Below, piece by piece: positions 31,380 through 52,282 of a stretch of DNA of 64,000 nt (position 1 is the first letter of the stretch; each line of letters starts with the position of its first letter). Location: assembly GCA_963710645.1 (NCBI GenBank), contig CAVQBD010000002.1, positions 138,828 through 202,827 on the forward strand. The letters run 5' to 3'. The stretch comes from an uncultured Holophagae bacterium. GTDB lineage: Bacteria; Acidobacteriota; Thermoanaerobaculia; Thermoanaerobaculales; Sulfomarinibacteraceae. Both the position numbers and the translations under genes were made by a program. The notes under the pieces were generated by a model. The model had not been told where the DNA came from and searched no databases. It saw only the letters and a program-made list of their open reading frames with translations.

Positions 31380-31382
31380 GGG

Positions 31383-32903: not shown

Positions 32904-33937
32904 GCATCACACGCCGGTCCATGATCGGAGGCCTGGTTGGTGGGGCGGCCGCCATGGCGGCCGAGTCCGCCGATGCCGGCTCCCATAAGCATTTCGAGGG
33001 CTATCCGGGCCGCTACGGGCTCCTCCACGACACCACCCTGTGTGTGGGCTGCCGGTCCTGCGAGATGGCCTGTGGCGAGGTCAACGATCTGCCCGCCCCA
33101 GAGGCTCCCATTGGTGACCAGCGTGTCTTTGAGGACACGCGGCGGACCACTGCCACCCATCTGACGGTCGTCAACCGCTATGTTGAACGAAGCGGCAATC
33201 AGCCGGAGGTGTTCCGCAAGCTCCAGTGCATGCACTGCAACGAGCCGTGCTGCGCCACCGTGTGCCCGGTTGGAGCATTCACAAAAACCCCCGAGGGACC
33301 GGTGCTCTATGACGCCGAGGTCTGCATGGGTTGCCGCTACTGCATCATGGCCTGCCCCTACAACGCCTTGGCCTATGAGTATGACAATCCGCTGACGCCA
33401 AGGGTCATGCGCTGCACCATGTGCTATCAGCGGATCGTGGAGGGCCAGGTTCCGGGTTGTGCCGAAGCCTGTCCAACAGGCGCCATCACCTTCGGCCGGC
33501 GCGACGAACTCATTAAAGTGGCCAGAGAGAGGATCCGCAAGGAACCCGGCCGCTACATCGACCACATCTTCGGTGAGAACGAGTTCGGCGGCACGAGCTG
33601 GCTGCTGCTGGCCGGCGTGCCCTTCAGTCAGCTCGATCTGCACGAGGGTCTGACCTATGAGCCCCTGCCGGCCATCGCGACCAGCTATCTCAGCGTCGTG
33701 CCACTGGTGATCACGATCTACCCGGGCCTGCTCCTCGGTCTGCACGCCTTCAGCAAACGCCAGGAGGCGGTGGCCCGCAAAGAGCGGGATGAGGCGGTGG
33801 CCGAAGCCCTGAAAAAGGCCGACGACGACGCGAAACAGAAGCTCACCAAGGCCGCCGAGAAGGCGAAGAAGGACCAGCAACGGGCGGTTGACATGGCGGT
33901 TAAAAAGGCGCTCGAGGAGCACGGGGGTGGAGCATGA
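32900..33937 (+). CDS. hmcB: HmcB-like Tat-exported 4x[4Fe-4S] protein (DsrO/PsrB/NrfC family) with a C-terminal TM anchor
   Basis: ATG 32900, with an ATGA overlap to hmcA. Twin-arginine leader MSITRRSMIGGLVGG. Four Cys clusters (CVGCRSCEMAC, CMHCNEPCCATVCP, CMGCRYCIMACP, CTMCYQR...CAEACP) and a late hydrophobic helix. Confidence 0.8.
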   Translation: MSITRRSMIGGLVGGAAAMAAESADAGSHKHFEGYPGRYGLLHDTTLCVGCRSCEMACGEVNDLPAPEAPIGDQRVFEDTRRTTATHLTVVNRYVERSGNQPEVFRKLQCMHCNEPCCATVCPVGAFTKTPEGPVLYDAEVCMGCRYCIMACPYNALAYEYDNPLTPRVMRCTMCYQRIVEGQVPGCAEACPTGAITFGRRDELIKVARERIRKEPGRYIDHIFGENEFGGTSWLLLAGVPFSQLDLHEGLTYEPLPAIATSYLSVVPLVITIYPGLLLGLHAFSKRQEAVARKERDEAVAEALKKADDDAKQKLTKAAEKAKKDQQRAVDMAVKKALEEHGGGA

Positions 33938-35121
33938 GTCAGGCCGGTGTCGAGAGTCTGCAGCCGGCGCCGTCAAAGCCCGGTCTGCTGACTCCGTTCA
34001 ACGTGGTGTCGGGGATCATATTGATCGGTGGTGCGGCGATCCTGGCCCTCCGATTCATCAAGGGGTTGGAGGCGACGACCAACCTCACCGACACCTATCC
34101 GTGGGGGCTGTGGATCGGCTTCGATGTCATGAGTGGGGTCGCGCTGGCAGCCGGTGGCTTCGTCACTTCGACTGCCGTTTACCTCTTCGGCATGAAGGAG
34201 TACAAGCCCATCGTCCGGCCGGCGATCCTGACGGGATTCCTCGGTTATTTCCTGGTGGTCCTCGGGCTGCTTGCGGATCTCGGACGCCCCTGGCGCCTTC
34301 CCTATCCCTTTATCAAACAGGCGGGCCCGACCTCACCGTTATTCGAGGTGGCGCTCTGCGTGGCGTTGTACCTGACGGTGTTGTTCATCGAGACGACGCC
34401 GGCCGCGCTGGAGTGGCTCGGTCTGAAACGGTGGCGCAGGGTGGTGGGCAGCCTGACCATCGCGCTCACCGTTTTCGGCTTGATATTGTCCACCATGCAT
34501 CAGTCCACCCTCGGGGCCATGTACATGGCGGCGCCCACCAAGGTGCACCCGCTTTGGTACTCGGCCCACATGCCGGTGCACTTCTTCGTGTCGGCGGTGG
34601 CGGCGGGCATCGGCATGGTTATCGTGGAAGGGGCCATCTCCCACCGGGCCTTCCACCATCAAGTACAGATCACCCAGGATCAATTCAGGGATATCAACAT
34701 CGGACTGGCCAAGGCCGGTGCGGTGGCTCTGGCTGTCTATTTCGCCGTCAAGGTGGTCGGTCTCGCCATCGAGGACGAATGGGCGTTGTTGGGCACGGGC
34801 TGGGGTGCGTGGTTTCTTCTGGAGATCCTCGGTTTTGTTCTGCTGCCCTGCATCCTCTTTGCGGTTGCATACCGGGAAAGGAATGTGGTGCTGGCCCGAG
34901 TCGCGGGCGTCCTCACGGTTGTGGGCGTCGTCCTGAACAGATTCAATATCACGTTTGTCGTATTCAACTGGAATTACACGACCGAGCCCAGGTACTACCC
35001 GAACTGGATGGAGATCTGGGTGACCGTCGCGTTCATCACATTCGCGGTGGTGGTGTTCAAGTTGATCGCGAGCTACATGCCGATCATGTACGAACACCCC
35101 GACTGGAAAGGCGAGCACTGA
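33934..35121 (+). CDS. hmcC: HmcC-like NrfD/PsrC/DsrP-family integral membrane quinone-interacting subunit
   Basis: ATGA overlap with hmcB. 395 aa and polytopic, with the NrfD-type N-terminus ...TYPWGLWIGFDVMSGVALAAGGF. Confidence 0.8.
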   Translation: MSQAGVESLQPAPSKPGLLTPFNVVSGIILIGGAAILALRFIKGLEATTNLTDTYPWGLWIGFDVMSGVALAAGGFVTSTAVYLFGMKEYKPIVRPAILTGFLGYFLVVLGLLADLGRPWRLPYPFIKQAGPTSPLFEVALCVALYLTVLFIETTPAALEWLGLKRWRRVVGSLTIALTVFGLILSTMHQSTLGAMYMAAPTKVHPLWYSAHMPVHFFVSAVAAGIGMVIVEGAISHRAFHHQVQITQDQFRDINIGLAKAGAVALAVYFAVKVVGLAIEDEWALLGTGWGAWFLLEILGFVLLPCILFAVAYRERNVVLARVAGVLTVVGVVLNRFNITFVVFNWNYTTEPRYYPNWMEIWVTVAFITFAVVVFKLIASYMPIMYEHPDWKGEH

Positions 35122-36983: not shown

Positions 36984-38510
36984 TCAACGAGCAACGGGCA
37001 AAACCACGGCAAACGTGCTGCCCTCGCCGACCTTGGATTCGACCTTGATCTCACCGCCGTGTTTCTGAATGATGCCGAGCGACACGGAAAGACCGAGCCC
37101 GGTCCCGCTGCCGCTCGATTTGGTGGTAAAAAAGGGATCGAAAATCGCTTTGAGTACGCGAGGCGACATTCCGGGGCCGGTGTCCCCGATGTAGATTGCG
37201 ACACATCCGGTGTCCAGGCTCACGTCACTGCTCAGGGTGAGTGTGCCCCCACTCTCCATTGCGTCGATCGCGTTGAGGATCAGATTGAGAAACACCTGGC
37301 TCAGATACTGCCGATCACCGTTGATCTCCGGCAGATCATCGGAGATGTCATAAACCTGCCTGACCCCGGAGAGTTTGAGCTGGTTGGACGCGAGTCTGAG
37401 TGCGTTTCCGACCACCTCGTCGAGGCTCAACCGTTCGGTCTTGATCTCGCTCTCGCGAGCGAAGTCGAGGAGATTTCGGACGATCTTACGGGCCCGCTCC
37501 GCCTGTTCTGATACGTCTCTGATCAACTCCTGTTTCTCGCCGTCTGGCAGGCTTTCGAAATCCTCCTCGAGAACCGCTGCGGTCAGCATGATGTTGTTGA
37601 TTGGGTTGTTGACCTCGTGGGCGATACCGGCGGTCAGGGATCCGACGGCTCGAAGCTTCTGGGACTGGAGGAGGAATTCCTCCCGGCGCACGAGTTCGCG
37701 GGTCATCCTGTTGATCGCGATCGCGAGATCGGTGAACTCGTCACGGGATTTTCGAACCGGCACGATCGGGGAAAAATCACCGGCCCCGATACGGCGTGCG
37801 GCGGCCATCAGAAGATCGAGGCGCAGCATGATATGGCGCCACATGAAGGTCGCCGCATAGACCGACAACGTGACCACCAGGAGCAGATAGACCGCGGGAA
37901 AGACCTTTGAAACAGCCAATAGCCTGCGAACGCTGTCGCGCTCCCTGTCGGCGACCTTCTGACCGCAGGAGACCAGGCCCGATCCGCAGTCTCGGAGCTC
38001 CTGGTCAAGCGCCTGACGGGAGGTTGACATCGCGGGTTCGCCGGACTGTTCGAGGTCACGAAGCTCGCCGATGAGCTCGCGGTAGTGTCGCAAATTTTTT
38101 TCGAGGAACTCGATACATTCGCCGCTCACCGAGACAGTGAGATCCTGCATTGACTGTTCCACGGCTGCTGCTGCGGCGTCGATGTGGTAGTCGACGTGCT
38201 GAAGGTCGCTGCCATAGAGCAAAAAGTTCTTCTCGAATCGCCGAGTTTGGAGAATCTCGTAGTTCAGCTGATCGGCGACACCGATCAAGGTGATTTTTCG
38301 CTCGATCCGGGACACCAGGACCCACGTTACGGCGGTGATCGCCACGGATCCGATGGCGAACAGGGCGAACATTGTGGCGAGTCGCATGCGGATACTAACC
38401 TTTGGGCGAGAGAGGAGGGTTCTTTCGGCCTCAGTGGTCGTCACCACACTGTGTTCGACGAGGTCGAACCCTCCGACAAGCGTTTCAGGGTTCTGCCCCG
38501 TATCCGTCAT
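36984..38510 (-). CDS. Membrane sensor histidine kinase (HAMP, HisKA, HATPase)
   Basis: Two TM segments flank a roughly 150-aa sensor region. H-box AGIAHEVNNPINNI, N-box LNLILNAIDA, and G-boxes GDTGPGM and GSGTGLGLSVS. Confidence 0.85.
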   Translation of the reverse strand: MTDTGQNPETLVGGFDLVEHSVVTTTEAERTLLSRPKVSIRMRLATMFALFAIGSVAITAVTWVLVSRIERKITLIGVADQLNYEILQTRRFEKNFLLYGSDLQHVDYHIDAAAAAVEQSMQDLTVSVSGECIEFLEKNLRHYRELIGELRDLEQSGEPAMSTSRQALDQELRDCGSGLVSCGQKVADRERDSVRRLLAVSKVFPAVYLLLVVTLSVYAATFMWRHIMLRLDLLMAAARRIGAGDFSPIVPVRKSRDEFTDLAIAINRMTRELVRREEFLLQSQKLRAVGSLTAGIAHEVNNPINNIMLTAAVLEEDFESLPDGEKQELIRDVSEQAERARKIVRNLLDFARESEIKTERLSLDEVVGNALRLASNQLKLSGVRQVYDISDDLPEINGDRQYLSQVFLNLILNAIDAMESGGTLTLSSDVSLDTGCVAIYIGDTGPGMSPRVLKAIFDPFFTTKSSGSGTGLGLSVSLGIIQKHGGEIKVESKVGEGSTFAVVLPVAR

Positions 38511-38553
38511 GATCCTCCGGTCTGCAGCGATGGAGTGTCCAGCGGTGCCACCT

Positions 38554-38934
38554 TCAGCGTTTCATTTCTTTGATCGCTCGCAGGATGATTTCGCGCAAAT
38601 CATCAGGCTTGAATGGTTTCGCAATGAAGTCGAAGGCACCGCGTGTGAGAGCCTCGCGCGCGACCTCCACCGTGGCGTAGCCGGTGATGAGGATCACCTT
38701 TGTGTGAGGCGACTTTTCGAGCACGTGCTCGAGCACTTCCATGCCGCTGAAGCCCTCCATCCGCACATCGGTCACGACGATGTCGAATGCCTTTTCCACC
38801 ACGCGCGCAACAGCCAGACGACTTTCCTGGAAGATCTCCACGTCATAGTCGGACTTCTCAAGCGCGGTCTTCAACCGCTTGCCAACAATTTCCTCGTCAT
38901 CGAGCACCAGAATCTGGATCTTCGGTTCGCTCAT
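38554..38934 (-). CDS. Single-domain CheY-like response regulator
   Basis: IQILVLDDEEIV...DIVVTDVRMEGFSG...VILITGY...FIAKPFKPDDL. Confidence 0.9.
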   Translation of the reverse strand: MSEPKIQILVLDDEEIVGKRLKTALEKSDYDVEIFQESRLAVARVVEKAFDIVVTDVRMEGFSGMEVLEHVLEKSPHTKVILITGYATVEVAREALTRGAFDFIAKPFKPDDLREIILRAIKEMKR

Positions 38935-38967
38935 CCGCTGCCTCCCGACCGCCCGGCACCGGGCCGT

Positions 38968-40062
38968 TCAGTTTTCGTTTGAAACAACCGCCGATTCCGC
39001 GAGCCGCCGCCGTATCGATGCCTGCCTGCGAAAAGCCTTGATGACGTTGAAAATAATCACCACAACGCCTGATACACCGGCAACAAAGAGCATACCCTTG
39101 CTGACGGCGTTCAATTGTCCGACCCAGACCTCATCAAAACTGACCAAGCCGAGTTGGCGGAGGTACACCGGTATGGCGACGCCGCGCGAGATGACGCAGA
39201 GCAGGATGACGATACTCGTCACCAACCGGATCACGACCTCTTTGACGACTTTAGTCCCGTAGGTACCGATGTAGATACCGATCAGAGACCCCAGGTACAG
39301 CAAGACCACCAAACGCACGTCGATGAACCCCTCGAGAACATAGTTCAGGGCTCCAAAGGCGCCCATGAACATGGCCAGAAAAAGTTCGGTCCCGGTGGCC
39401 ACGGCGGTCGGAACTCCAAAGACGTAGATCATCGCTGGAACGCCTATGAACCCTCCGACTCCGATAGTTCCGGCGAGGTACCCGGTGGCAAGCCCGACGA
39501 GGGCCAGCACCCACAGCGATACCTTCACGTCGGCCACCGGAAATTCAATCACCGGCGACAAACGCATACGTCCCAGTCTCTCGGCGATCTTCCGAGAAGG
39601 GCCCTCCTCCGCTCTGGATTTCACCACGTCCCGAAGCATGGAAATCGCAACCGCCGACAGAATACAGACAAAGACCAGACTGATGTACAGGTTGGCAGCC
39701 GCCCCCTTGCCGCCGCCGTGGGTGTCGGCGACCCCAAAGAGGGTGGCATTGATCCACACCGCGAGGCGGATTCCGACGAATGAGGTCGCGAGCAGGAAGA
39801 TGCCGAGTTTTTTGTCGACGTTGCCGAGTTCACCGTGTTTTCGAGATCCCATGAGGGCCTTGCCGAATTTGTGGGTGATATTGCTGCCGACGGCGATCAC
39901 GCCGGGAACACCCAGGTTCATCATTCCGGGGGTCATGAAGAATGCCCCACCGCTGCCGATGAAGCCACTGAGCACTCCGCCGATGAAACCGAGCAGAACC
40001 ACCTGGAGCGAGGTGCCGAGATCGAGAACGATGAAATCCTTGAATATCAGTTCTGGCATCAA
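38968..40062 (-). CDS. TauE/SafE-family (TSUP) anion exporter-like membrane protein
   Basis: 364 aa and polytopic. GG-rich helix motifs occur in both halves (GGVLSGFIGSGGAFFMTPGM... and ...GYLAGTIGVGGFIGVPAMIY). Confidence 0.7.
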   Translation of the reverse strand: MMPELIFKDFIVLDLGTSLQVVLLGFIGGVLSGFIGSGGAFFMTPGMMNLGVPGVIAVGSNITHKFGKALMGSRKHGELGNVDKKLGIFLLATSFVGIRLAVWINATLFGVADTHGGGKGAAANLYISLVFVCILSAVAISMLRDVVKSRAEEGPSRKIAERLGRMRLSPVIEFPVADVKVSLWVLALVGLATGYLAGTIGVGGFIGVPAMIYVFGVPTAVATGTELFLAMFMGAFGALNYVLEGFIDVRLVVLLYLGSLIGIYIGTYGTKVVKEVVIRLVTSIVILLCVISRGVAIPVYLRQLGLVSFDEVWVGQLNAVSKGMLFVAGVSGVVVIIFNVIKAFRRQASIRRRLAESAVVSNEN

Positions 40063-40134
40063 TCAACTTCCGGCCAGGGAATTTTGTCACCGCCGTTCGT
40101 CGCCATGGCGGTGGCTGCGCGGCCCAAGTCTTTG

Positions 40135-41664
40135 TCACTCCACATGGAACAACTTCAGGACGGTTCCGGCGAGCGTACCGTATATCACGGCGAAGACCGG
40201 CACAAAGACCAACAGAACCGCGGCGGCCACCACTTTTGCCCCGGCTGTCGCGGGTGAAAAAAACGCCAACATTTCGTACTGATGATCGAAGACCAGGAGG
40301 ACAACAGCGACCACGATGGCCGCCAGCGCAATCATCTTCGCGTAGTCGGACCAGCCGGTGTGAACCATCTGACCAAGATCCTCGGCGTTGACCACTGGCG
40401 CCTTGATGACATCTCCGAGCCGTCCTACCAGCTCTCTTGTCTTTCGGAGTCTCGTGGCGTGGCCGTGGTCCAGATATACGTCACCGACGACCACCAGACT
40501 GCAGGGAATCGATCGGTCAATGACCGCACCGATTCTCCCAACGTCAACCGGGAGTCGGCTTGCGCTGCCGGCGATTCCGCGAGCGTTCAATTCACCGATC
40601 ATCTCGCGCAGGTCGGCATCCTTCCCGGGTTGTCCAGGTGCGAGCTCCACATCCTCTTCGATCCCGCCGTCCACCTGGCGGACGTTGAACAACGGGAGAG
40701 GGTCGGCGTTCGCCGCACCGGCGTCAGTACTGTCTGTCACCGCCGAAAGCGAGGTGGCCGGGGTGAGAGTCACGAGCTCCACGGCCGAGTGCCAATGGGT
40801 CGCGGTCTTGACGACTGCCTCGAAGGTGGAACCCGTTGCCTGAAAACGCTCTTGCACCCACAGGATGTTGGTGGCCGCCATGGCGCAGGTCAGGTCTTTC
40901 ACACCCGGAATCGAACCGACGACCTCGGGCGCCCTGACGCCGACGGCCGCATCCTGCGGAAGAAAGGAGACCGCCACGAAGCCGGCCTCCGCCCTCACCG
41001 AGAATCTCGCCGCCCAGGTGCGTTCATCCCTGGCCAGGGCGATCCTTATCCGGGCGGCAAGCAACAGGTTCTCGAGCACCTTGATGGATGCAGGGAATGC
41101 CTGGAACTCTGGAAGTTGTGCATAATCGCATAGGGCCGTAGTGGCGCCTCCGACATCGACGCGATCGAGGTTGACGACCAGGTCATGCCCGGTCCACGGG
41201 TCCCCGCTCACGTTGTACATTGTCCGAATCCAACGTGCGATGTCCTCGTTCACGCTCTCCACATACTGCTTGGCTTTTGCGCGATCGAGGGACAATCGGC
41301 CCATGACCTCGGCGATGTGGGTGTCGGTGTCGATGGCCGTGCGGATGCGCAAGACGTGTGTCAAGCCCGGCGCCGCCAGATGAGCGGCTCGCCCGTGAAA
41401 CACCAGATCGTCCTCGATGGCGCGTTCGCACAGCACCCGCGTCATGAAGGCCAGAAAATGCTCTTTTTCCAGAATCTGCCGTTCACTCAACTGACGTCTC
41501 TTGACTGCTGCCGTTTCAAGTTTGCCGACGGCAATTCCGTCTCGGATAGCCAACTCGACAATGTCCTCCTGGCTGAGGCACCGGAAATCGAGTTTCTGGG
41601 CGAGGGTTTGAGCAAAGAGCTTGCCCTTCTCCTGCTCTCCCCGCGAGACACATACTATGCGCAC
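40135..41664 (-). CDS. Cytidylate-kinase-like (PF13189-type) / BON-like / membrane-anchored protein
   Basis: GTG start with a GGGGAGG RBS. The N-terminus MRIVCVSRGEQEKGKLFAQTLAQKLDF... has a degenerate P-loop, and the LTHVLRIRT...DIARWIRTMY...DLVVNLD pattern follows. A BON-like segment ends in GSIPGVKDL. Two TM helices lie at the C-terminus. Confidence 0.6.
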   Translation of the reverse strand: MRIVCVSRGEQEKGKLFAQTLAQKLDFRCLSQEDIVELAIRDGIAVGKLETAAVKRRQLSERQILEKEHFLAFMTRVLCERAIEDDLVFHGRAAHLAAPGLTHVLRIRTAIDTDTHIAEVMGRLSLDRAKAKQYVESVNEDIARWIRTMYNVSGDPWTGHDLVVNLDRVDVGGATTALCDYAQLPEFQAFPASIKVLENLLLAARIRIALARDERTWAARFSVRAEAGFVAVSFLPQDAAVGVRAPEVVGSIPGVKDLTCAMAATNILWVQERFQATGSTFEAVVKTATHWHSAVELVTLTPATSLSAVTDSTDAGAANADPLPLFNVRQVDGGIEEDVELAPGQPGKDADLREMIGELNARGIAGSASRLPVDVGRIGAVIDRSIPCSLVVVGDVYLDHGHATRLRKTRELVGRLGDVIKAPVVNAEDLGQMVHTGWSDYAKMIALAAIVVAVVLLVFDHQYEMLAFFSPATAGAKVVAAAVLLVFVPVFAVIYGTLAGTVLKLFHVE

Positions 41665-41808
41665 TCTCGAACCTCCCCGAGCGACTCCTTCACATCGAAA
41701 ATCAACAGCCCCTGCATGGCGACCCCATCGCTTTCTGTTCAGCCCAGCGGCTCGATTGTACTCCCGGTCGTGGGATTTCCCGCAACAGACAAATGGTTAG
41801 GCTGTGGC

Positions 41809-44800
41809 CTACCTATTCACCACCTCGATCAACGGACACGGACGTTCGTCGGTGCCCTCGTGGGCTTGTCCGTGAATTGCCTCGATCGCACGGGCGCGGG
41901 TCGGAAAGACCGACTCCCGGCCAATGGTCGCGAGACAGCCGGTCCGTTCGAGAATGTCGAAAATGTCATCCTTGAGACCGCTGATTGAAACCTGGTAACC
42001 GGCGCTTCGAAGATCCAGTACCAGGTCACCAAGGTCCTCCGCCGCGATCTCATCCACGGTCGAAAGACCGTGACACGCGAGCAGGATGTGGCGCGTCTCG
42101 GGGCGCGCGGCGACACGCGCCTTGATCTCGTGCGCGACGAAATCCACGGTCGCAAAATTGAGAGGCCCGTCGATCCGCATGGCTGCGATAAATCGGCAGA
42201 CGGCGAGACCATAGTGGTCGGCGTTGCGGAGCGATCCGTCCGCATGCATCGAAATCTCCACGACCCGAGGCAGGAGCGGCTGCATCGGGCAGTGCTCCTC
42301 AGAGTGTCCACGATGGGCCTCGGCGTACATGCTGGCCACTGCAGAGTCCGCGGTCGGGAAGATATTGTCCAACCCGATTTCGTCGGCAACACCCGACCGT
42401 CCGAGCTCCTCGAAAACGTGATCTCTGAAGCTGCAGAACGACACCGAAAAAGCCGCCTTTCTCAGGCGTTCCACCAACTCGCGAAGCCTTTGTGCGTCTT
42501 CCGAGCCGTGTCGTTCAAGGGTGTGAGCGACAAACAAAATGTGAGTCACCTCAAGCCGATTCTTGACCCACTTGGTGAGCTCCAACTCCAGAGCCGCCGG
42601 GTTGGCGAGAATCAACGGTCCATCGAAGCGAAGGGCCGCGATGTGAGAACACAGTCCAAGGCCGTGCCGTCGAGCTTCGCGCAAACTCCCGTCAGGATGC
42701 AAGGAAAGTTCGGTGACACGGGGCGCCATGGGCTGGAACGGGCAGTTCGGCTCGCTCGATTCGGCGTGCGCCTGCGAGCACAGGGCGGCGATCGCTGCGA
42801 ATTGGGTGGGGAAGCGGTGATTTGAGCCGATGACCTGGTCAGTGTCAATCCGGTCGAGGACCTCCAGGACTTCATCCCGGAAGCCCGAGAACGACACGCC
42901 CAAACCCTGCTCGCGGAGACGGTTGACGACCTGAACGAGCTTCTGCGCCCCGGACGGATCGACCTCCGCAATACCGTGGGCGACGAATATGACCTGTCGC
43001 AGCTCCGATCTCCCCTCCAATTTCAGGAGGATCTCCTGCTCGAGGAAATCCGTGTTGGCATAGGTGAGCGGATCGTCGAAGCGGAGGACTGCCATGTGCC
43101 GGCACAACTGGAGGTCATGGCGTACAGCATCGCGAAGCGAACCGTCGGGATGGACCGAGAGTTCCGCGAGTCGGGGCATCACCGATCGATAGGGGCAACC
43201 CGGCTCGGGATCAGTGTGGGCCGAGGCGTAGATCGCAGCGATGGCCTGGGCCTGAGTGGGGAACTGGTGGTCCCCGCCGAGGACATCGTAGAGGTGGGAC
43301 CGTTTGAGCACGTCGACGACCTGGTCCTTGAGGCCGCAGAAAGAGACGTCGTACTTCGCCTCCCGCAAGTGCTCCACCAGGTGGCGCAACATTTCCTCAC
43401 CCGAGGCGTCGACCTCGTTGATGCCCTCGGCCACGACCAGGACGTGCTTGAGATCCGGCATCTTGGAGACCCGATCGAGCACCTCGTCCTCGAGGTAGGA
43501 GGCGTTGGCGAAGTTCAGCGGGCCGTCGAACCGTATTGCGGCCAGGTACCGGCATTGCTCGAGGCCATGCCTCCTGGCGTCCTTCAAACCGCCCTCCGAA
43601 TGGGGGGCCAATACGGCCACGCTGGGACGCATCGTACGGAAGAGGTACCCGCCAAGCGACAGGGTCACCCCGATCAGGATCCCCCACTCGAGGTGCGGCG
43701 CAAGAATGAGAGTGCACACGAAGGTCACGACCGACACGAAACCGTCGAATGGTTGGGTCCGCCAAGCATGGACAAAACCACTCACGTTGAGCAGGCCGAA
43801 TACGGCCATCATGATGATCGACGCCAGCACCGCCTGTGGCAGGTTGTAGAGCATGGGTGAGAAAAAGAGCAGGACGATCGCGACGATCAACCCGGAGAAG
43901 ACGTTGGACATGCCGGTGCGCGCTCCCGCCTGCAGGTTGACGGCCGAGCGCGAGAACGATCCCGAGACGGCATAGCTCTGACCCATGCAGCCAACGATGT
44001 TTGCCAACCCCTGACCGATCAGCTCCTGGTTCGGGTCGAGCTTCTGCTTTGTCTTGGCGGCCATCGCTTTGGCGATCGAGATCGCTTCCATGAATCCGAG
44101 GATGGAGATGATGATCGCTGCGGCGATGAGCTTGGGTATGACCTGGAAGTCGATGACGGGCGGACTGATTGGCGGGAGGCCGGCGGGGATTGTCCCGACC
44201 ACAGCCCCTCCTCCTGTCATCATCAAATTCTCTTGATCGATGGCGACGTTGCCCACCTTGATCCGCCATGTGCCAGGTTCCACCTCGAGATCCTGGGCCG
44301 ACTCACCCCGCACGATGAATTGGGGCTCACCCTTTGCATCGACGGCGCGCTGGAAGCGGTAGCCTCTCAGCTCGGTTCGAACATCCGACACGTGGTGTTT
44401 GAGTTCCTCGATCCGAATGTCGATCAAGCCTGCCATTTGGTGAAGGGCCAGCGTCCTGCGCTCGAAATCGCCCGCCACAGCCGGACCACCGCCTGACCCA
44501 AACCCCGTCGCCGAGCGCAGCGCGTGGCAACCCATGCACTGAGTGACGAGATCGCTGTTCTGGTCGTCGAGGAGGACGTTCCCGGAGGCCCTCGCTTCCT
44601 CCAAGAGTCGCTCCTCGAGCACGGCGTCGTTGAACTCAGTGATCTGCTCTTTCACTTTTTCGGATTCGATCTGGTTGCCCTGGACGTTCTCGTTCCTTTC
44701 AAATCCGAGCGTTGCGGCAAGCGCGGTGGTTACGACAACTGCCACCAGCACATTCGGGATCCGGGGGTTGAGTCGCCTCAACGTGATCATGATTGCGAAC

Positions 44801-45414
44801 GACAAGATTGCCATCGCGAGCGTTGGAAGGTGGGTGTAGTGGAGGGCGGCCTCGAAGACCCGGTAGATGGTCCCGTAGTGATGTTCCGCCTTGTCTACAT
44901 AGACGCCGAAGATTTTCGACAATTGGGACGTTGCGATGATCAGGGCGGCGGCATTGGTGAAGCCGTTGACCACCGGATGGGAGAGGAAATTGACAATCAG
45001 GCCGAGGCGAAGGATGCCAAGGGCGAGCTGGAAAACGCCCACCATCAACGCCAGCAAAATGGCGTAGGCGATGTACTGCTGGCCGCCTGCAGTGGCGAGT
45101 GGCTCGAGTGCGGCGGCGGTCATCAGCGACACCACCGCAACAGGTCCCGTCGCCAACTGCCGGCTCGAGCCGAAGAGGTTGGCTACGATGGGCGGCAGAA
45201 AGGCCGCATAGAGCCCGTAGTAGGCCGGCAGCCCGGCCAGCTGCGCATACGCCATCGACTGGGGAACGAGAACGAGGGCTACCGTGAGCCCTGCGATGAA
45301 GTCACTTCTGAGAGTCGAGGCGTCATAGCCCTGGAACCATGTGAGAAATGGGAAAAGGCGTCGCAGGATGGTCATATCCCAGATACTCCAAGCTTTCGGA
45401 GTATACGACAGCAC
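41809..45414 (-). CDS. SulP/SLC26-family anion transporter with an inserted soluble loop and four tandem C-terminal STAS domains
   Basis: SulP signature region (LRSDFIAGLTVALVLVPQSMAYAQLAGLP...). There is a roughly 165-aa non-membrane insertion (residues about 239-404) before the VVGTIPAGLPP motif. Four roughly 150-aa STAS-like repeats occupy residues about 600-1201. Confidence 0.85.
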   Translation of the reverse strand: MLSYTPKAWSIWDMTILRRLFPFLTWFQGYDASTLRSDFIAGLTVALVLVPQSMAYAQLAGLPAYYGLYAAFLPPIVANLFGSSRQLATGPVAVVSLMTAAALEPLATAGGQQYIAYAILLALMVGVFQLALGILRLGLIVNFLSHPVVNGFTNAAALIIATSQLSKIFGVYVDKAEHHYGTIYRVFEAALHYTHLPTLAMAILSFAIMITLRRLNPRIPNVLVAVVVTTALAATLGFERNENVQGNQIESEKVKEQITEFNDAVLEERLLEEARASGNVLLDDQNSDLVTQCMGCHALRSATGFGSGGGPAVAGDFERRTLALHQMAGLIDIRIEELKHHVSDVRTELRGYRFQRAVDAKGEPQFIVRGESAQDLEVEPGTWRIKVGNVAIDQENLMMTGGGAVVGTIPAGLPPISPPVIDFQVIPKLIAAAIIISILGFMEAISIAKAMAAKTKQKLDPNQELIGQGLANIVGCMGQSYAVSGSFSRSAVNLQAGARTGMSNVFSGLIVAIVLLFFSPMLYNLPQAVLASIIMMAVFGLLNVSGFVHAWRTQPFDGFVSVVTFVCTLILAPHLEWGILIGVTLSLGGYLFRTMRPSVAVLAPHSEGGLKDARRHGLEQCRYLAAIRFDGPLNFANASYLEDEVLDRVSKMPDLKHVLVVAEGINEVDASGEEMLRHLVEHLREAKYDVSFCGLKDQVVDVLKRSHLYDVLGGDHQFPTQAQAIAAIYASAHTDPEPGCPYRSVMPRLAELSVHPDGSLRDAVRHDLQLCRHMAVLRFDDPLTYANTDFLEQEILLKLEGRSELRQVIFVAHGIAEVDPSGAQKLVQVVNRLREQGLGVSFSGFRDEVLEVLDRIDTDQVIGSNHRFPTQFAAIAALCSQAHAESSEPNCPFQPMAPRVTELSLHPDGSLREARRHGLGLCSHIAALRFDGPLILANPAALELELTKWVKNRLEVTHILFVAHTLERHGSEDAQRLRELVERLRKAAFSVSFCSFRDHVFEELGRSGVADEIGLDNIFPTADSAVASMYAEAHRGHSEEHCPMQPLLPRVVEISMHADGSLRNADHYGLAVCRFIAAMRIDGPLNFATVDFVAHEIKARVAARPETRHILLACHGLSTVDEIAAEDLGDLVLDLRSAGYQVSISGLKDDIFDILERTGCLATIGRESVFPTRARAIEAIHGQAHEGTDERPCPLIEVVNR

Positions 45415-45541
45415 TTCCTTTATGCGATGTCGGATGGAGAATCAGACAAGATCATGCGACAGTTTGACAGCCGAGATGGCGACTGACAGAATTCTGGTGC
45501 CTGCGATGTGATGTCGGGGCTTGAGCCGAGGGGGTCGAAAC

Positions 45542-46767
45542 GTGGCGATCATTACGATCGACAGTGCGACGTTCTGCCACGGGCCGGAGGTGGCATCTTC
45601 AGTGGCCGACCGTCTGAAACTGGACCGCCTCGAGGACGACGCGGTCTTTGCGGCCGCCGCCGCCGTCGCCGGTATGGATGCAGCCAAGCTGGTCCGTATC
45701 GTCTACGGTCCGGCGCCCATTTTCCCGGTCGGGGTGCGTGACACGGCGAAGGCAGTCGCCGCCCTCCGCGTCGCCTTGATCGAGGTCATCAGCGCGGATC
45801 AGCTGGTGTACCACGGTCTCCTCGGTCGGCTGCTTCCCCAAAAGCTGTCTCATGTGCTGCGAGTGTGCTTGGCAGGCGACACCGATTTTCGAATCGGGGA
45901 GGCGGACAGGCAGGGAGTTCCGCCCGGGAGGCGAAACGCCGCATCAAGGCCGACGACGACGCGCGGGCGGACTGGATCGACCTCGTGGTTGGTATGGGCC
46001 CATGGGACACGAGCATGTACGACATTTTCGTGGCCATGGACAAGACGTCTCTCGAAGGTGCGGTCGAGTTGGTCTGTGATCACGCGACTCGGCCGCTTCT
46101 GGATCTGACTCGAGCGGGCGAACGCGCCCTGGCCGAAGCTCGCCTTTCAGCGGAGGTCAATCTCGAACTCGCCCGCGAGGGCCACGACGTCGACGTGGTG
46201 TGCGACGATTCTCGGGCCACCATTTTGATCAAGAAGGAAAGCGTATTCAGGGACCGGCAGCGGAAGGAGTTCGAGAAAATTGCCCTCGGTGTCGAGGGGG
46301 TGTCTGCCGTCGAGGTCCGGCGTGGACCGCGCTTCAAGGAGCCGGACATATCATTCAAGATCGACCTCGACGTGCCGTCAAAGGTGCTGTTGGTCGATGA
46401 CGAGCAGGAGTTCGTCAACACCCTGTCCGAGCGGCTCGAGACCCGGAGCATGACGCCGGCAATCGCCTACGACGGCGAAGAGGCTCTGGCGATGGTCGCC
46501 GACGATCAGCCGGAGGTGATGGTGCTCGACCTCAAAATGCCGGGCATCGACGGCCTCGAGGTGCTGCGCAGAATGAAGAAGAGCCACCCCGAAACCCAGG
46601 TCATCATCCTCACAGGGCATGGTTCGGCGGCGGAGGAGGAATTGGCCGCCGAACTTGGCGCCTTTGCATACCTGCGCAAGCCGGTGGACATCGAGGAACT
46701 CACGGCGACAATGAGAAAAGCGTATCGTGAGATCGAGGCGCGACGCGAAGGACGCGACGACGACTGA
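45542..46767 (+). pseudogene. Cytidylate-kinase-like / BON-like / receiver-domain protein split by a frame change near 45900 (pseudogene, assembly indel or recoding)
   Basis: ORF 45521..46108 carries the N-terminal half of the kinase-like domain (...LSHVLRVCLAGDTDFRI). The continuation (SAREAKRRIKADDDARADWI...YDIFVAMD..., a BON-like segment, then a full receiver VLLVDDEQ...MVLDLKMPGIDG...ILTGHG...LRKPVD) is in the -1 frame (ORF 45865..46767). Colinearity with the paralog at 40135..41664 spans the junction. Confidence 0.7.
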
Positions 46768-46771
46768 GAAA

Positions 46772-48505
<1,734 letters not shown>

Positions 48506-48510
48506 ATTGA

Positions 48511-48894
48511 ATGAGTCGTCTTCGAGTCTTGTTCGTCGACGATGAAGAGGAGTTCGTATCGGCGGTCGTCGAACGACTCCAACTTCGAGGGATCGAAGCC
48601 ACAGGTGCGATAACTGGTGCAGAGGCTCTCGATCTGATCGACCGGGAAACCTACGACGTCGTCGCGGCCGATGTGAAGATGCCGGGGCTCGGAGGGCTCG
48701 AGATCGTCCGGCGCATCAAGGATCGACATCCCGGGCTGCAGGTGATTCTGCTGAGCGGTCACGGCTCGCGAGATGATGCCGAGGAGGGGCGTCGGCTCGG
48801 TGCCTGCGATTACTTGGAAAAACCCATCGACATCGAGATTCTGATAGAAATCTTGCGCAAGGCTGCCGCGTCGGCAGGGCCGGTGGTCCGGTGA
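48511..48894 (+). CDS. Single-domain CheY-like response regulator
   Basis: RVLFVDDEEEF...DVVAADVKMPGLGG...VILLSGHG...YLEKPIDIEIL. Confidence 0.9.
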   Translation: MSRLRVLFVDDEEEFVSAVVERLQLRGIEATGAITGAEALDLIDRETYDVVAADVKMPGLGGLEIVRRIKDRHPGLQVILLSGHGSRDDAEEGRRLGACDYLEKPIDIEILIEILRKAAASAGPVVR

Positions 48895-49613
48895 CCGACT
48901 CCGATTCCTCTCGAAAACGGGATGAGGGCCTTGCTTTCTTCGGCACGATGATCGCCGGACAATCCCACGAGCTCACCAACGTCCTCAATATCATCAAGGA
49001 GTTGGCCGGCCTGCAACACGATCTTCTGGAGGCAGGAAACACCGGGCGCCCCGTCGATCTTTCGAGGATTCAGGAGGTCGCATGCAGGATCCAAAACCAG
49101 GTCATGCGGGGCGACACGATCATTCGCAACCTCAACCATTTTGCTCACAGCGTCGACCTGCCGACGGCGGTATTCGATCTCAGGGAGGCGATTGAAAGGG
49201 TTGTGTTCTTCGCCGAGCGGTCGGCCCGGCTGGCCCGGGTCGAGTTGAGTCCGGACCTGCCGGAGGAATCGATGGCCCTCGAGAACAACCCGTTCAGCCT
49301 CCAGCAGGCGTTGTTCATTTGCATCGATCTTGCTCTGCAGTCCGCCACTGACGAACGAAAGGTGACCGTGGATTACAGCGTCTGCGAAGACGGGGCGAAG
49401 ATCCGGATCAACTCGGCCGACAGGCTGGCCAACGATGGTCTCGTCGCCGAGAAACTGGGGTTCCTCAGGCTGTTGCTGTCGGACCTTGGCGGGGTCCTCC
49501 TCAGGGGTCCTGGAGAGGAGCCGTACAACGCGATCGTTTTCAAAATCGGGCTGCACCGGGGCGAGCCATCCGGGCGGCTCGGATCGGCCCGAAGCTCAGG
49601 GGAAGAGAATTGA
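48891..49613 (+). CDS. Soluble histidine-kinase-like protein with a DHp/H-box but a degenerate ATPase domain
   Basis: GTGA overlap with the upstream gene. The H-box-like IAGQSHELTNVLNIIKELAG aligns with AGVAHEINNPLAII of the neighbouring kinase. The downstream region has no recognisable N, G1 or G2 boxes. Confidence 0.55.
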   Translation: MTDSDSSRKRDEGLAFFGTMIAGQSHELTNVLNIIKELAGLQHDLLEAGNTGRPVDLSRIQEVACRIQNQVMRGDTIIRNLNHFAHSVDLPTAVFDLREAIERVVFFAERSARLARVELSPDLPEESMALENNPFSLQQALFICIDLALQSATDERKVTVDYSVCEDGAKIRINSADRLANDGLVAEKLGFLRLLLSDLGGVLLRGPGEEPYNAIVFKIGLHRGEPSGRLGSARSSGEEN

Positions 49614-49668: not shown

Positions 49669-50103
49669 ATGATGCGCGTCGAGAGCGTGTTGTTGGTTGA
49701 TGACGAAGTGGAGTTTGTTCAGACACTTGCAGAACGCATGCAGGCACGGGGACTGGCCGTCGAGTACGTCACCAACGGCCACGATGCCATCGAATCGGCG
49801 AGATCCAAGACCTACGATGCGGTGGTCCTCGATTTGGCCATGCCTGGAATGAACGGTCTCGAGACCCTCAAGATCCTCCTCCGAGATCATCCCGGCCTCC
49901 AGATCATGCTTCTCACCGGGCAGGCCACCGTTGGCGATGCCGTCGAGGCAACAAAGATCGGGGCGGTGGACGTCTTCGAAAAACCCACCGACATCGAGAC
50001 CCTGGTGGAGAAGATCCGCGAAGCCAGGAAAGCGCGACTCGCCCTGGAGGAGCAACACGCCCTCGATGAGATCGACAAGATCATGTCCACCAAGGGTTGG
50101 TGA
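49669..50103 (+). CDS. CheY-like response regulator with a short C-terminal helical tail
   Basis: ATG 49669 or 49672 follows GGAGG. VLLVDDEVEF...AVVLDLAMPGMNG...LLTGQA...VFEKPTDIETL. Confidence 0.85.
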   Translation: MMRVESVLLVDDEVEFVQTLAERMQARGLAVEYVTNGHDAIESARSKTYDAVVLDLAMPGMNGLETLKILLRDHPGLQIMLLTGQATVGDAVEATKIGAVDVFEKPTDIETLVEKIREARKARLALEEQHALDEIDKIMSTKGW

Positions 50104-50218: not shown

Positions 50219-52282
50219 TCAGCCTGCCCTCTCGAACCGTTCGAGGTGTTGTTCACTCCCCAACACCAGCATCACATCGCCCTCCTGAAAGACGTAGCCC
50301 GCACTGGGCATTTCGTCGATAAAAGTTTCCCCGTCGCTGCTCTTTCGCTTGATGAGCAGAAGGTTGACACCAAATTTCTGTCGAATGTCGAGCGAACCCA
50401 GACTCTGACCGAAGAAACTGGCGGGGACCGGGACCTCGGCAAGGCTCATGCCCCGAACTCCTGGGAGCGCTCGGGCTGACGGACCATTCCCCATTGTTCC
50501 GGCCATGGTCGAGGCCATATCGCGCTTGAGAATCTCGCCATTGTATGCCTCGATCACATCCTGCGGCCACAGGGTGCCCACGAGCCGTCCGCGATCCACC
50601 ACCGGCGCCATGAACCGATACCGTCCGAACCGCCTCATGACCTCGTCGAGCGGATCGTCGGGACCGAATACAGGGAAGCCGGTTTCCCTCATCATATCCT
50701 CGGCGATGACCAGACCTCGTGCCGATGCCGGATCGGTCATGAGGGGTCTGATGTCATCGATGGTAATCAGACCCAGGAGGTGGTGATTGGCGTCGGTCAC
50801 GAACACCGTATCGCCGGGGCGTTCGACAAAACGAGAAATCACGGGCATCAAATGGTCTTCTCGTCGGACCACGGTGACCTCGGTTCGCATCGCCTCGCGT
50901 GCGTTGAGCTGGCCAAGCACGTTGGCCGAGTATCCGCCCCGAATGTCGACCCCGCGTCGAAGCAGCTTGAGTGTATAGATCGACGCTGTCTGCATCCGTG
51001 TCGCGAGCAGAGTGGCGATGATGCAGCTGATCATCAGGGGAAGAATGATCTTGTAGTCGCCCGTGAGCTCGAAGATCATCACGATGGCGGTGATGGGAGC
51101 GTGGGTTCCCGCCGCGACAACGGCACCCATCCCCACCAGTGCGTAGGCGCCGGGGCTGGCCGACGCGTCGGGCCATAGGGAATGCACGATAGTCCCGACC
51201 GCCCCGCCGGCCATCGCGCCGATGAACAATGAGGGAGCGAAGATGCCGCCGGATCCGCCTGAACCGATGGTCAGGGAGACCGCCACGATCTTTACCAAGA
51301 CCAGGATCAGCAGCAGCTTCCACCCCAGTCCACCACTCAGTGCCTCGTTGATGGCTTCGTAGCCGACTCCAAGAACCTCCGGGAATTGGATCGCGATCAA
51401 TCCGATGAGCGCCCCGCCCATCGCTGGTTTGACGACAGCTGGAAGACTGAGAGCATCGAAGAGGTCTTCTGCGCCGTACAACGCACGAACAAAAACCAGG
51501 GCCACCAACCCGGCGATGATGCCCAACGCACCGTAGGCGAAGAGTTCGAGTGGGCTTGCGAGGCTGTAGGCCGGCACCTCAAATGCCGGGAAATTACCAA
51601 GGAAGTGTCGACTCACCACTGTTGCCGTGACAGATGAAATCACGATGGGAGAAAACTGGGTGACTCCAAAATCGCCGAGGATGATCTCCACTGAGAACAG
51701 GGCCCCGGCCACCGGCGCATTGAATGTGGCCGCGATCCCGGCCGCCGCGCCGCAGCCGACCAGGGTCCGCAGTCGCCGTTCTCCCACGCCCAACCACTGA
51801 CCGAGGGATGATCCGATCGCAGAGCCGATCTGGACGATCGGTCCTTCCCGACCCACTGACCCTCCAGATGCGATACACACGCCCGAGGCGAGGAGCTTGG
51901 CGACAACCACACGCGGACGGATCCGACCGCCCCGAAGGGCCACCGCCTCCATGACTTCCGGCACACCATGCCCCTTGGCTTCGGCAGCATAACGGACGAT
52001 GATCAGCCCGACGATCAGACCACCCACCGCCGGCGACAGCACTTTCCACCAACTCGGCAGACTTCTGAGGTATGCAAGAGTTACGTTGTCCGTTTGCCAG
52101 GCGACGGCCTGGAAGAGGCGTATGGACTCCCGGAACCCAACCGCACCAAGTCCACCGAGCAGCCCGATGACAACGGCCACGAGCACCATGTACGAGTGTT
52201 CGGTGTACTTCAGGAACAGGTGGGCACGCTCCGCCGCCTGGCGAACAAGATTGACAACCGGGATTCGGCTCAGCCAGCCCAT
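50219..52282 (-). CDS. ClC-family chloride channel/antiporter with a CBS pair and a C-terminal TrkA-C (RCK_C) domain
   Basis: GSVGREGPIVQIGS, GSGGSGGIFAPSLFIGA and the CBS region. The terminal segment VPASFFGQSLGSLDIRQKFGVNLLLIKR...GDVMLVLG is TrkA-C-like. Confidence 0.85.
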   Translation of the reverse strand: MGWLSRIPVVNLVRQAAERAHLFLKYTEHSYMVLVAVVIGLLGGLGAVGFRESIRLFQAVAWQTDNVTLAYLRSLPSWWKVLSPAVGGLIVGLIIVRYAAEAKGHGVPEVMEAVALRGGRIRPRVVVAKLLASGVCIASGGSVGREGPIVQIGSAIGSSLGQWLGVGERRLRTLVGCGAAAGIAATFNAPVAGALFSVEIILGDFGVTQFSPIVISSVTATVVSRHFLGNFPAFEVPAYSLASPLELFAYGALGIIAGLVALVFVRALYGAEDLFDALSLPAVVKPAMGGALIGLIAIQFPEVLGVGYEAINEALSGGLGWKLLLILVLVKIVAVSLTIGSGGSGGIFAPSLFIGAMAGGAVGTIVHSLWPDASASPGAYALVGMGAVVAAGTHAPITAIVMIFELTGDYKIILPLMISCIIATLLATRMQTASIYTLKLLRRGVDIRGGYSANVLGQLNAREAMRTEVTVVRREDHLMPVISRFVERPGDTVFVTDANHHLLGLITIDDIRPLMTDPASARGLVIAEDMMRETGFPVFGPDDPLDEVMRRFGRYRFMAPVVDRGRLVGTLWPQDVIEAYNGEILKRDMASTMAGTMGNGPSARALPGVRGMSLAEVPVPASFFGQSLGSLDIRQKFGVNLLLIKRKSSDGETFIDEMPSAGYVFQEGDVMLVLGSEQHLERFERAG

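Follow-up and report, generated by a model that had tools for sequence, protein, structure and literature searches.

A SulP/SLC26 transporter with four tandem STAS domains and a predicted periplasmic CxxCH hairpin, encoded beside a phosphorelay in an uncultured Holophagae bacterium

The SulP/SLC26 anion transporters that have been solved or characterised, among them AtSULTR4;1, Rv1739c, SLC26Dg, BicA, DauA, prestin and pendrin, possess a single STAS domain, placed directly after transmembrane helix 14 (TM14) of a membrane domain made of two inverted repeats of seven helices (7+7 fold). The present report concerns a relative of these proteins in which four STAS domains follow one another in tandem. 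Its gene lies in a stretch of 64,000 nucleotides (nt), hereafter the window, from an uncultured Holophagae bacterium (Acidobacteriota; Sulfomarinibacteraceae; assembly GCA_963710645.1, contig CAVQBD010000002.1, positions 138,828 to 202,827 of the forward strand). Like the canonical transporters, the encoded protein has a 7+7 fold in its structural model, residues at the sulfate and proton sites that are identical to those of AtSULTR4;1, and a STAS domain immediately after TM14. It departs from them in having four STAS domains instead of one (2 to 6 in its relatives), an insertion of 185 amino acids (aa) with a CxxCH motif, a Cys at the start and a His-x3-Glu-x2-Cys-Pro tail at the end of the STAS unit, and a fixed synteny with phosphorelay genes. 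The STAS array, the predicted periplasmic hairpin bearing CxxCH and the dedicated phosphorelay are three undescribed features that occur together here, in a family that is present in the databases and has gone unremarked. We hold the architecture of the four-STAS transporter with high confidence.

The four STAS domains are each recognised independently of the others. When every unit is scanned alone, the Pfam STAS profile (PF01740) scores 46.3, 37.5, 25.9 and 43.7 bits in units 1 to 4 (E-values 4e-12, 2e-9, 9e-6 and 3e-11), against a gathering cut-off of 22.6 bits. Degenerate or false STAS calls are ruled out, since each unit exceeds the Pfam threshold by itself. An initial annotation of the window, made from the sequence alone, had proposed four tandem STAS domains on one SulP chain, and the Pfam count bears this out, with four genuine domains and not one. 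The segment on which that proposal was based (41809-43617) corresponds to residues 600-1201 of a 1201-aa open reading frame (ORF) and contains all four of the linker strings that were quoted from it. Its division into four units stands; the borders it gave, at about residues 600, 752, 903 and 1053, are better placed at 583, 733, 884 and 1035 (here and below, residues are numbered from the ATG at 45375, which gives a protein of 1188 aa, unless the 1201-aa ORF is named; Table 1). In the AlphaFold2 (AF2) model, the secondary structure assigned by DSSP repeats four times as a β-hairpin, a STAS core, a last helix and a short tail, and the units have a predicted local distance difference test score (pLDDT) of 68-94.

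The same annotation had described near-identical linkers that join the STAS domains. These do not form a separate element, for each of them consists of the tail of one STAS unit and the N-terminal β-hairpin of the next. The sequence HPDGSLRDA, within the longer pattern P-R-V-x-E-L-S-L-H-P-D-G-S-L-R-D-A, is the β1/β-hairpin that opens every unit, including unit 1, where it comes directly after TM14. The sequence AH-x3-E-x2-CP is the tail that closes every unit, including the last. Because unit 1 opens with the hairpin, the last unit closes with the tail and relatives with one STAS domain hold both, the linker was rejected as a conserved module of its own. It follows that the duplicated element is a complete SulP-type STAS unit, composed of β-hairpin, STAS core and tail.

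The transporter part of the protein leaves little doubt about its affiliation. The ORF on the minus strand (41809-45414, 1201 aa) is uninterrupted and has a GTG start at 45414. The ATG at 45375 is the most likely true start, since the homologues, as well as the database protein P0001 (1188 aa, identical to the window protein), begin with MTILRRLFPFL. Pfam Sulfate_transp (PF00916) matches with 359 bits (cut-off 23) in two pieces of the 1201-aa ORF (residues 35-255 and from about 402), and NCBIfam TIGR00815 (sulP) with 544 bits (cut-off 380). The AF2 model of the full protein has a mean pLDDT of 82 and a predicted template modelling score (pTM) of 0.53. A Foldseek search with this model places prestin, AtSULTR4;1 and SLC26A6 at the top and also retrieves SLC26Dg and BicA (E from 1e-29 to 1e-10); the matches extend over the membrane domain and one STAS domain only. 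The 7+7 inverted-repeat membrane fold of the window protein is, as modelled, that of SulP/SLC26.

Anion-site residues of the family reside in TM1, TM3 and TM10, and the acidic residue of proton-coupled members is in TM8. With phmmer, the window protein aligns to AtSULTR4;1 (7lhv_A) with E = 2e-78, so that Q112, Y116, A153, E347 and S390-F391-S392-R393 of the plant protein correspond to Q39, Y43, A80, E430 and S473-F474-S475-R476. These positions (Q39, Y43, A80, E430, S473-R476) are invariant or at least 90% conserved across the family. The equivalent residues of AtSULTR4;1 serve in sulfate coordination or proton coupling (PMC8298490). The core is accordingly predicted to be a proton-coupled transporter of sulfate or a similar oxyanion, and no substrate is claimed. 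The protein is a genuine SulP/SLC26 member by every testable criterion and belongs to a distinct subfamily that is almost confined to uncultured bacteria.

The architecture is not peculiar to the window. Among 5.8 billion proteins searched, SulP relatives number more than 8000. When these are clustered at 90% identity, the best 120 clusters all fall in the multi-STAS clade, whose size is therefore at least 120 clusters. According to a profile of the unit, 86 of these clusters have 4 units, 21 have 3, 6 have 2, 4 have 5 and 3 have 6, counts that include some fragments. Among genomes sampled at one per species of the Genome Taxonomy Database (GTDB), relatives of the unit are encoded in 348 stretches. 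At least two units are found in about 50 of the best 80 loci, and all of these (about 50) are metagenome-assembled genomes (MAGs). The hosts are mainly Acidobacteriota (Holophagae, Thermoanaerobaculia, Sulfomarinibacteraceae, Bryobacteraceae), Planctomycetota (Phycisphaerae) and Myxococcota (Polyangia), with Gemmatimonadota in addition. The closest relatives of the window protein come from Holophagae MAGs (87-88% identity). Clustering at 50% identity reduces the full-length four-unit proteins to one representative, P0026, which indicates a tight clade, though one spread over several phyla.

The names carried by these proteins in databases are generic ('SulP family inorganic anion transporter', 'STAS domain-containing protein'). 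In full-text literature searches, no description of a chain with more than one STAS domain came to light; where 'two STAS domains' are mentioned there, homodimers alone are meant. The initial annotation had held that SulP proteins normally carry one STAS domain and that a four-STAS form is undescribed. The first point agrees with the solved and characterised SulP/SLC26 proteins and the second with the literature searched, whereas the notion of an architecture unique to the window has to be given up in favour of a recurrent clade with 2 to 6 units that is already in public databases. Such an architecture would surprise specialists in SLC26 proteins. With multiplied STAS units kept in fixed order across phyla and an invariant Cys/His site in each copy, the clade offers a direct handle on STAS function.

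The order of the units is ancient and is kept across phyla. When each unit of a homologue is assigned to its best match among the four units of the window protein, the order u1-u2-u3-u4 is recovered in 72 of 85 four-unit proteins. Two-unit proteins are u1-u4, three-unit proteins are mostly u1-u2-u4, and those with five or six units have extra u2-like copies. These patterns imply that the four-unit order is ancestral and has been maintained, with occasional loss or gain of inner units. The four copies arose by ancient tandem duplication of the whole STAS unit. Among 80 homologues, the mean pairwise identity is highest in the membrane halves (74-75%), the most conserved part of the protein, followed by unit 1 (58%), unit 2 (52%), unit 4 (49%), unit 3 (45%) and the insertion (37%).

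The subfamily also includes proteins with a single STAS domain, from Desulfatibacillum alkenivorans DSM 16219 (L080), from MAGs of Ignavibacteria, Zixibacteria, Nitrospirae and Myxococcota, and P0141. They resemble the window protein in the hairpin/β insertion, including the motifs WR-x-KVGN and GGGAVVG-x-IP-x-GLP, in the Cys...Cys-Pro signature of the STAS domain and in having a dCache kinase and Cytidylate_kin2-like (CK2-like)/receiver genes as neighbours. They differ from it in the one STAS domain, in the absence from many of them of a CxxCH tip of about 30 aa, and in the variable His and Glu of the STAS site.

A few individual proteins of the searches are worth recording. Six-unit variants contain several near-identical inner units, indicating recent duplications. 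One of them, P0007 (L083, 8001-12500), has no dCache relay nearby and is found beside a set resembling arsenic resistance genes (ArsR-type HTH, LMWPc, methyltransferase, SBF/ACR3-like). A four-STAS homologue of 1323 aa, P0072, has a precomputed Response_reg (PF00072) match, which suggests that its STAS array ends in a fused receiver domain; such a fusion would fit a direct relationship between STAS domains and receivers. P0207 (1859 aa), credited with 20 'stretches' in the search of representatives, is a leucine-rich-repeat protein and was discarded as a false positive.

Each STAS unit carries a conserved set of Cys and His residues. In 29 diverse units the sole invariant columns are Gly13, Cys26, His138, Glu142, Cys145 and Pro146. 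Cys26, His138 and Cys145-Pro146 are conserved at 90% or above across 452 units, Gly13 and Glu142 being lower there. In the wider family, represented by more distant sequences clustered at 50% identity, no element of the unit is better conserved than the tail Cys-Pro, which 102-103 of 104 aligned units possess. The pair formed by Cys26 and Cys-Pro is found in 62 of 72 units of the distant representatives at 50% identity, and the His is missing in all 6 of the distant units that lack Cys26. A hydrophobic residue follows the Cys-Pro (CPY, CPF, CPM and CPL in units 1 to 4; L, F, Y or M across the wider family). The nearest solved STAS domain, that of Rv1739c (PDB 2KLN), aligns to positions 29-140 of the profile only and neither Cys position lies within this range; the Cys/His site is an addition specific to the subfamily. 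It may bind a metal through Cys2-His-Glu, act as a thiol/disulfide switch or be a heme-regulatory motif of the Cys-Pro type. An earlier suggestion, that His/Cys-containing linkers bind metal or sense redox state, fits the family-wide invariance of the His and Cys, though not the location in separate linkers.

The second feature of interest is the long insertion between TM7 and TM8, which, together with the conserved phosphorelay, had been missed by the initial annotation; these two are the most informative functional clues. In the AF2 model, a β-strand leads into a helix of 34 residues; a short helix with CMGCH and an ill-defined loop come next, and the helix that returns, of 35 residues, is followed by a four-stranded sheet. 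Modelled alone, the insertion has a pLDDT of 82 and a pTM of 0.70. All full-length homologues among the best 120 clusters share a CxxCH motif in this position. Cys280, Cys283, His284 and His312 are invariant in alignments of 80 and of 24 sequences, and the surrounding loop is poorly conserved. The insertion is predicted to be periplasmic, since RRLNPR precedes TM7 and AKTKQK follows TM8 (positive-inside rule) and the N-terminus of SLC26 proteins is cytoplasmic. The solved SLC26 topology is consistent with a periplasmic TM7-TM8 loop, which would expose the motif to the compartment of the Ccm/Ccs systems.

CMGCH is probably a heme c site. Single-STAS relatives fall in two groups, one with the same CxxCH tip and the other with a hairpin shortened by about 30 residues, the motif among them; for this reason the tip looks like an added fragment. 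A comparable case is provided by heme-containing Cache domains, in which a short CxxCH fragment has been inserted into the sensor scaffold (PMC12889525). Chemoreceptors of Geobacter have periplasmic sensor domains with heme c between two membrane helices (PMC3460858). The window protein resembles GSU0582, GSU0935 and the heme Cache domains in having a single CxxCH between two membrane helices, in a segment that is here predicted to be periplasmic, with the motif apparently acquired as a short insert (PMC3460858, PMC12889525). It differs from them in its scaffold, which is a helical hairpin within a transporter and not a PAS or Cache domain, without similarity in fold or sequence, and in that its heme is predicted. 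No Pfam family matches the insertion at E<=1. The best Foldseek matches in the PDB are the helical hairpins of HelD and MacA, with E of just 0.1-0.4 or so, and these were set aside as fold relatives. Literature searches for papers that join SulP and CXXCH gave nothing relevant.

Elsewhere in the window, at 30060-35121 on the plus strand, there is a respiratory-type cluster that encodes an HdrD-like CCG/4Fe-4S protein, a class III multiheme cytochrome c (506 aa, 31383-32903), a 4Fe-4S dicluster protein and an NrfD-type membrane subunit. The presence of this cytochrome implies that the organism matures c-type cytochromes.

The third feature is the gene neighbourhood. Five genes transcribed divergently from the transporter gene encode a phosphorelay (Table 1). 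In locus L084 all five are found in the same order beside a transporter gene of 75% identity, and most of them recur in L082. By tblastn, about 50 of 81 loci encode the dCache kinase, at 47-82% identity over about 520 aa. The CK2-like/receiver gene, too, is syntenic at most loci. If only the 46 loci of at least 17 kb are considered, the kinase is present in 36 of them, and the kinase and/or the CK2-like/receiver gene occurs within 10 kb in 38; the latter comprise 23 of the 28 loci with several STAS domains and 15 of the 18 with one, that of Desulfatibacillum alkenivorans included. Synteny of such strength across phyla argues that the transporter and the relay are a functional unit. No DNA-binding domain was found in the relay proteins, and a phosphorelay without such an output points to post-translational control of the transporter by a two-component system. 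Nothing relevant emerged from literature searches for a response regulator with a cytidylate-kinase-like domain. In the window, the CK2-like/receiver gene is split into two ORFs (45521-46108 and 45865-46767) by a deletion of 1 nt relative to L003, in the run CCGCCCGGG at about 45923-45925 of the plus strand. A sequencing error in a long-read MAG and a genuine pseudogene are the two explanations to be considered; the intact gene (408 aa) is found in L003 and L084.

Table 1. Position of the transporter gene, its parts and the divergent phosphorelay genes in the window
Feature	Coordinates	Strand	Remarks
SulP/SLC26 transporter gene	41809..45375	-	1188 aa; ATG at 45375, stop codon 41809-41811
First inverted repeat of membrane domain, TM1-TM7	44707..45333	-	Sulfate_transp profile positions 1-225, AF2 helices; Gln39, Tyr43, Ala80
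Insertion of about 185 aa between TM7 and TM8	44146..44706	-	residues 224-410; between Pfam profile positions 225 and 235
CMGCH, predicted C-x-x-C-H heme c attachment motif	44524..44538	-	Cys280, Cys283, His284; hairpin tip
His312 in LALHQMAG, candidate distal heme ligand	44440..44442	-	invariant in 80 homologues
Second inverted repeat of membrane domain, TM8-TM14	43636..44145	-	Glu430, GSFSRSAVN
STAS unit 1	43180..43629	-	residues 583-732; best conserved unit; E-[IV]-D-A-S-G-E-E; Cys608, His720, Glu724, Cys727-Pro728
STAS unit 2	42727..43179	-	residues 733-883; Cys758, His870, Glu875, Cys878-Pro879
STAS unit 3	42274..42726	-	residues 884-1034; most divergent, usually missing from 3-unit relatives; Cys909, His1021, Cys1029-Pro1030
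STAS unit 4	41812..42273	-	residues 1035-1188; terminal; Cys1060, His1172, Cys1180-Pro1181
Response regulator, divergent: Cytidylate_kin2-like domain, linker (weak BON match in paralogue), receiver	45542..46767	+	
dCache_1 histidine kinase	46727..48505	+	
Single-domain receiver	48511..48894	+	
240-aa protein with HisKA-like H-box	48891..49613	+	
Second single-domain receiver	about 49669..50103	+	

These features may be combined in a model in which transport is subject to redox and phosphorelay control. The core would carry out proton-coupled transport of sulfate or a similar oxyanion. The periplasmic hairpin would hold a covalent heme c and report the external redox state or a gas ligand. Beneath the membrane, the chain of STAS domains would form a regulatory platform, with unit 1 touching the membrane domain as in other SLC26 proteins and units 2 to 4 contributing additional thiol-, metal- or heme-responsive Cys/His sites as well as docking surfaces for receiver proteins. 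Redox state and the output of the phosphorelay would then gate transport. Alternatively, the occupancy of the transporter would be reported to the relay, making the protein a transceptor. A functional tie between a transporter and a histidine kinase with a periplasmic sensor is reported for the co-sensors DctA/DcuS and DauA of E. coli (PMC5703999); the present system differs from these in its gene neighbourhood, fixed across phyla, in a relay that lacks a DNA-binding regulator and in the expanded STAS array.

The regulated transporter or transceptor is the reading that we prefer; as a mechanism taken whole, it is put forward as a tentative proposal whose chances fall somewhat short of even; architecture and mechanism, if graded as one, come out evenly balanced. 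We regard as decidedly doubtful the most specific version, which would be a signalling device of a new class, built around a transporter. In it, a periplasmic heme c and 2 to 6 Cys/His STAS domains would pass the redox state outside the cell (or NO, O2 or sulfide) and the internal thiol, metal or heme status to and from the dedicated phosphorelay, the receivers acting on the STAS array and not on DNA, and the number of STAS domains setting the number of docking or sensing sites. A covalent heme on an SLC26 transporter, if present, would be unprecedented, and it would couple the uptake of an anion, probably sulfate, to the redox state of the environment in Acidobacteriota, Planctomycetota and Myxococcota of soils and sediments.

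Several observations weigh against the proposed mechanism. Heme, metal, transport and protein-protein contacts are all read from sequence, and the geometry between domains is uncertain, as the pTM of the full model indicates. The residues of the binding site do not reveal substrate selectivity, a caution expressed by the authors of the AtSULTR4;1 study (PMC8298490). The insertion has no solved fold or cytochrome family to support it (Pfam at E<=1; Foldseek against the PDB, with nothing below E=0.09). His312 is often found in relatives that lack CxxCH, and one relative, L055, has CxxCH and no His at this position; His312 may therefore not have evolved as a heme ligand. The more distant relatives do not keep the His and Glu of the STAS site, and the ancestral feature of the site may be only a pair of Cys residues. 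Relay genes are missing from 8 of the 46 long loci. Finally, synteny indicates a functional linkage, from which neither the direction of the effect nor a physical contact with the STAS domains can be deduced.

It may be asked whether the additional STAS domains sense anything. They might be purely architectural, that is, a rigid cytoplasmic stalk or a scaffold for oligomerisation with structural zinc at the junctions, the periplasmic CxxC(H) being a structural disulfide or metal site; there would be no redox sensing, and the neighbouring two-component genes would control just transcription or other targets. We consider this, the main rival reading, unlikely, though credible enough to be weighed with care. 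Cys2-His-Glu is a plausible tetrahedral zinc set, and the invariant residues are located exactly at the junctions between units, where the tail of one meets the start of the next. However, the Cys-Pro tail also closes the last unit, as well as the sole unit of one-STAS relatives, positions at which no junction needs to be held together. The decay of the SpoIIAA-type Ser and of other functional motifs in units 2 to 4 would suit a passive role, but the positional orthology of these units and their identity of 45-52% across phyla exceed the needs of a spacer. In the same manner, the failure to match the insertion to a cytochrome-like fold agrees with a structural CxxC, while the invariant His that comes right after the second Cys is the signature of heme c rather than of a disulfide motif. 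A relay devoid of a DNA-binding output domain is also difficult to reconcile with a purely transcriptional role of the two-component genes.

The array could also be a partner-switching module, as the initial annotation tended to favour, with the Ser of the D-x-S-G motif phosphorylated by a kinase of the SpoIIAB/RsbW type and dephosphorylated by a PP2C phosphatase. The motifs on which this idea was founded are all present in the window protein: VDASG in unit 1, VDPSG in unit 2, HGSE in unit 3 and no Ser in unit 4. In unit 1, the position within E-[IV]-D-A-S-G is occupied by Ser or Thr in all 80 homologues (77 Ser and 3 Thr), and the STAS profile matches the structures of SpoIIAA and TM1442 as well. 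Thus a conserved residue at the site of SpoIIAA phosphorylation is upheld for unit 1, but not beyond it, for the Ser is found in 18 of 80 homologues in unit 2, in spite of the DPSG seen here, and is absent from units 3 and 4. Moreover, ordinary SulP STAS domains commonly have a D-S/A-S-G loop, without being known to undergo phosphorylation.

Signalling genes do adjoin the transporter, yet they are not of the kind that partner switching calls for. A Pfam scan of the ORFs between about 30 and 57.7 kb revealed no PP2C/SpoIIE gene and no small GHKL kinase of the SpoIIAB/RsbW type within about 10 kb on either side, and neither kind appears in the precomputed Pfam labels of L001, L082 and L084. The HATPase_c proteins near the transporter are classical HisKA histidine kinases only; in place of the partners that the annotation had proposed to look for, there are HisKA kinases, receivers and CK2-like proteins. 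SpoIIAA, RsbV, RsbS and the STAS proteins of stressosomes have in common with the window protein the STAS fold and the D-x-S-G loop of unit 1, which in SpoIIAA holds the phosphoserine. The window protein differs in lacking a cognate GHKL Ser kinase and PP2C nearby, in the loss of the Ser from units 2 to 4 and in having its STAS domains chained to a transporter and not free-standing. We judge partner switching to be improbable.

Very improbable, too, is a system centred on heme, in which the H-x6-7-Cys-Pro-hydrophobic tails would bind labile heme in the cytoplasm, CxxCH would handle heme on the outside, and the protein would sense or move heme or porphyrin-related compounds. CP dipeptides do define heme-regulatory motifs, as exemplified by C265 and C282 of HO-2 (PMC8808069), and the tail of the STAS unit, whose Cys-Pro is followed by L, F, Y or M and is the most conserved unit element in the wider family, recalls the motifs of HO-2, Rev-erb beta and Irr, with the hydrophobic residue after the Cys-Pro and a His a few residues upstream. 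The likeness is one of motif only. Unlike that of heme-regulatory motifs, the Cys of the CP is accompanied by another conserved Cys and sits at the edge of a folded domain; the conservation of Cys26 along with it suggests a structured site of two Cys residues and not a flexible heme-regulatory motif. In addition, the core keeps a complete SULTR-type site for a small oxyanion and protons, which is unsuited to a porphyrin, and there are no genes for heme uptake or heme biosynthesis in the neighbourhood.

That the four copies are an artefact of assembly or sequencing, produced by expansion of a repeat, has practically no chance of being true: the 1-nt frameshift in a C/G run of the neighbouring gene may mean that the assembly is not free of errors, but the units are 38-46% identical to each other in protein and just 49-56% in DNA, neither Tandem Repeats Finder nor a second repeat finder detects a long DNA repeat in 41700-45500, and the identical four-unit order is present in dozens of independent assemblies from different phyla, so that the divergence of the copies and the more than 100 independent assemblies with the same architecture exclude expansion as well as collapse.

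The flanks of the transporter and the relay contain further genes. Directly downstream of the transporter, 36984-41664 (minus strand) encodes a 509-aa paralogue that combines the Cytidylate_kin2-like domain with an unknown C-terminal part of 340 aa, a protein of the TauE/SafE sulfite-exporter family, a 126-aa receiver (38554-38934) and a HAMP histidine kinase. Conservation of these genes is restricted to the closest relatives (L002, L003, L005, L007 and L084) and to L054 and L056. On the other side, 50219-52282 (minus strand) encodes a ClC-type chloride channel or transporter that also contains CBS and TrkA_C domains. Its counterparts in L004, L005 and L029 share 83-87% identity with it, and in L084, too, it adjoins the module. 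An ORF of 248 aa at 48810-49556 (minus strand), which has tblastn matches in 21 loci, was rejected as the antisense shadow of the plus-strand gene at 48891-49613. It calls for caution in the treatment of long antisense ORFs in a sequence of 61% G+C.

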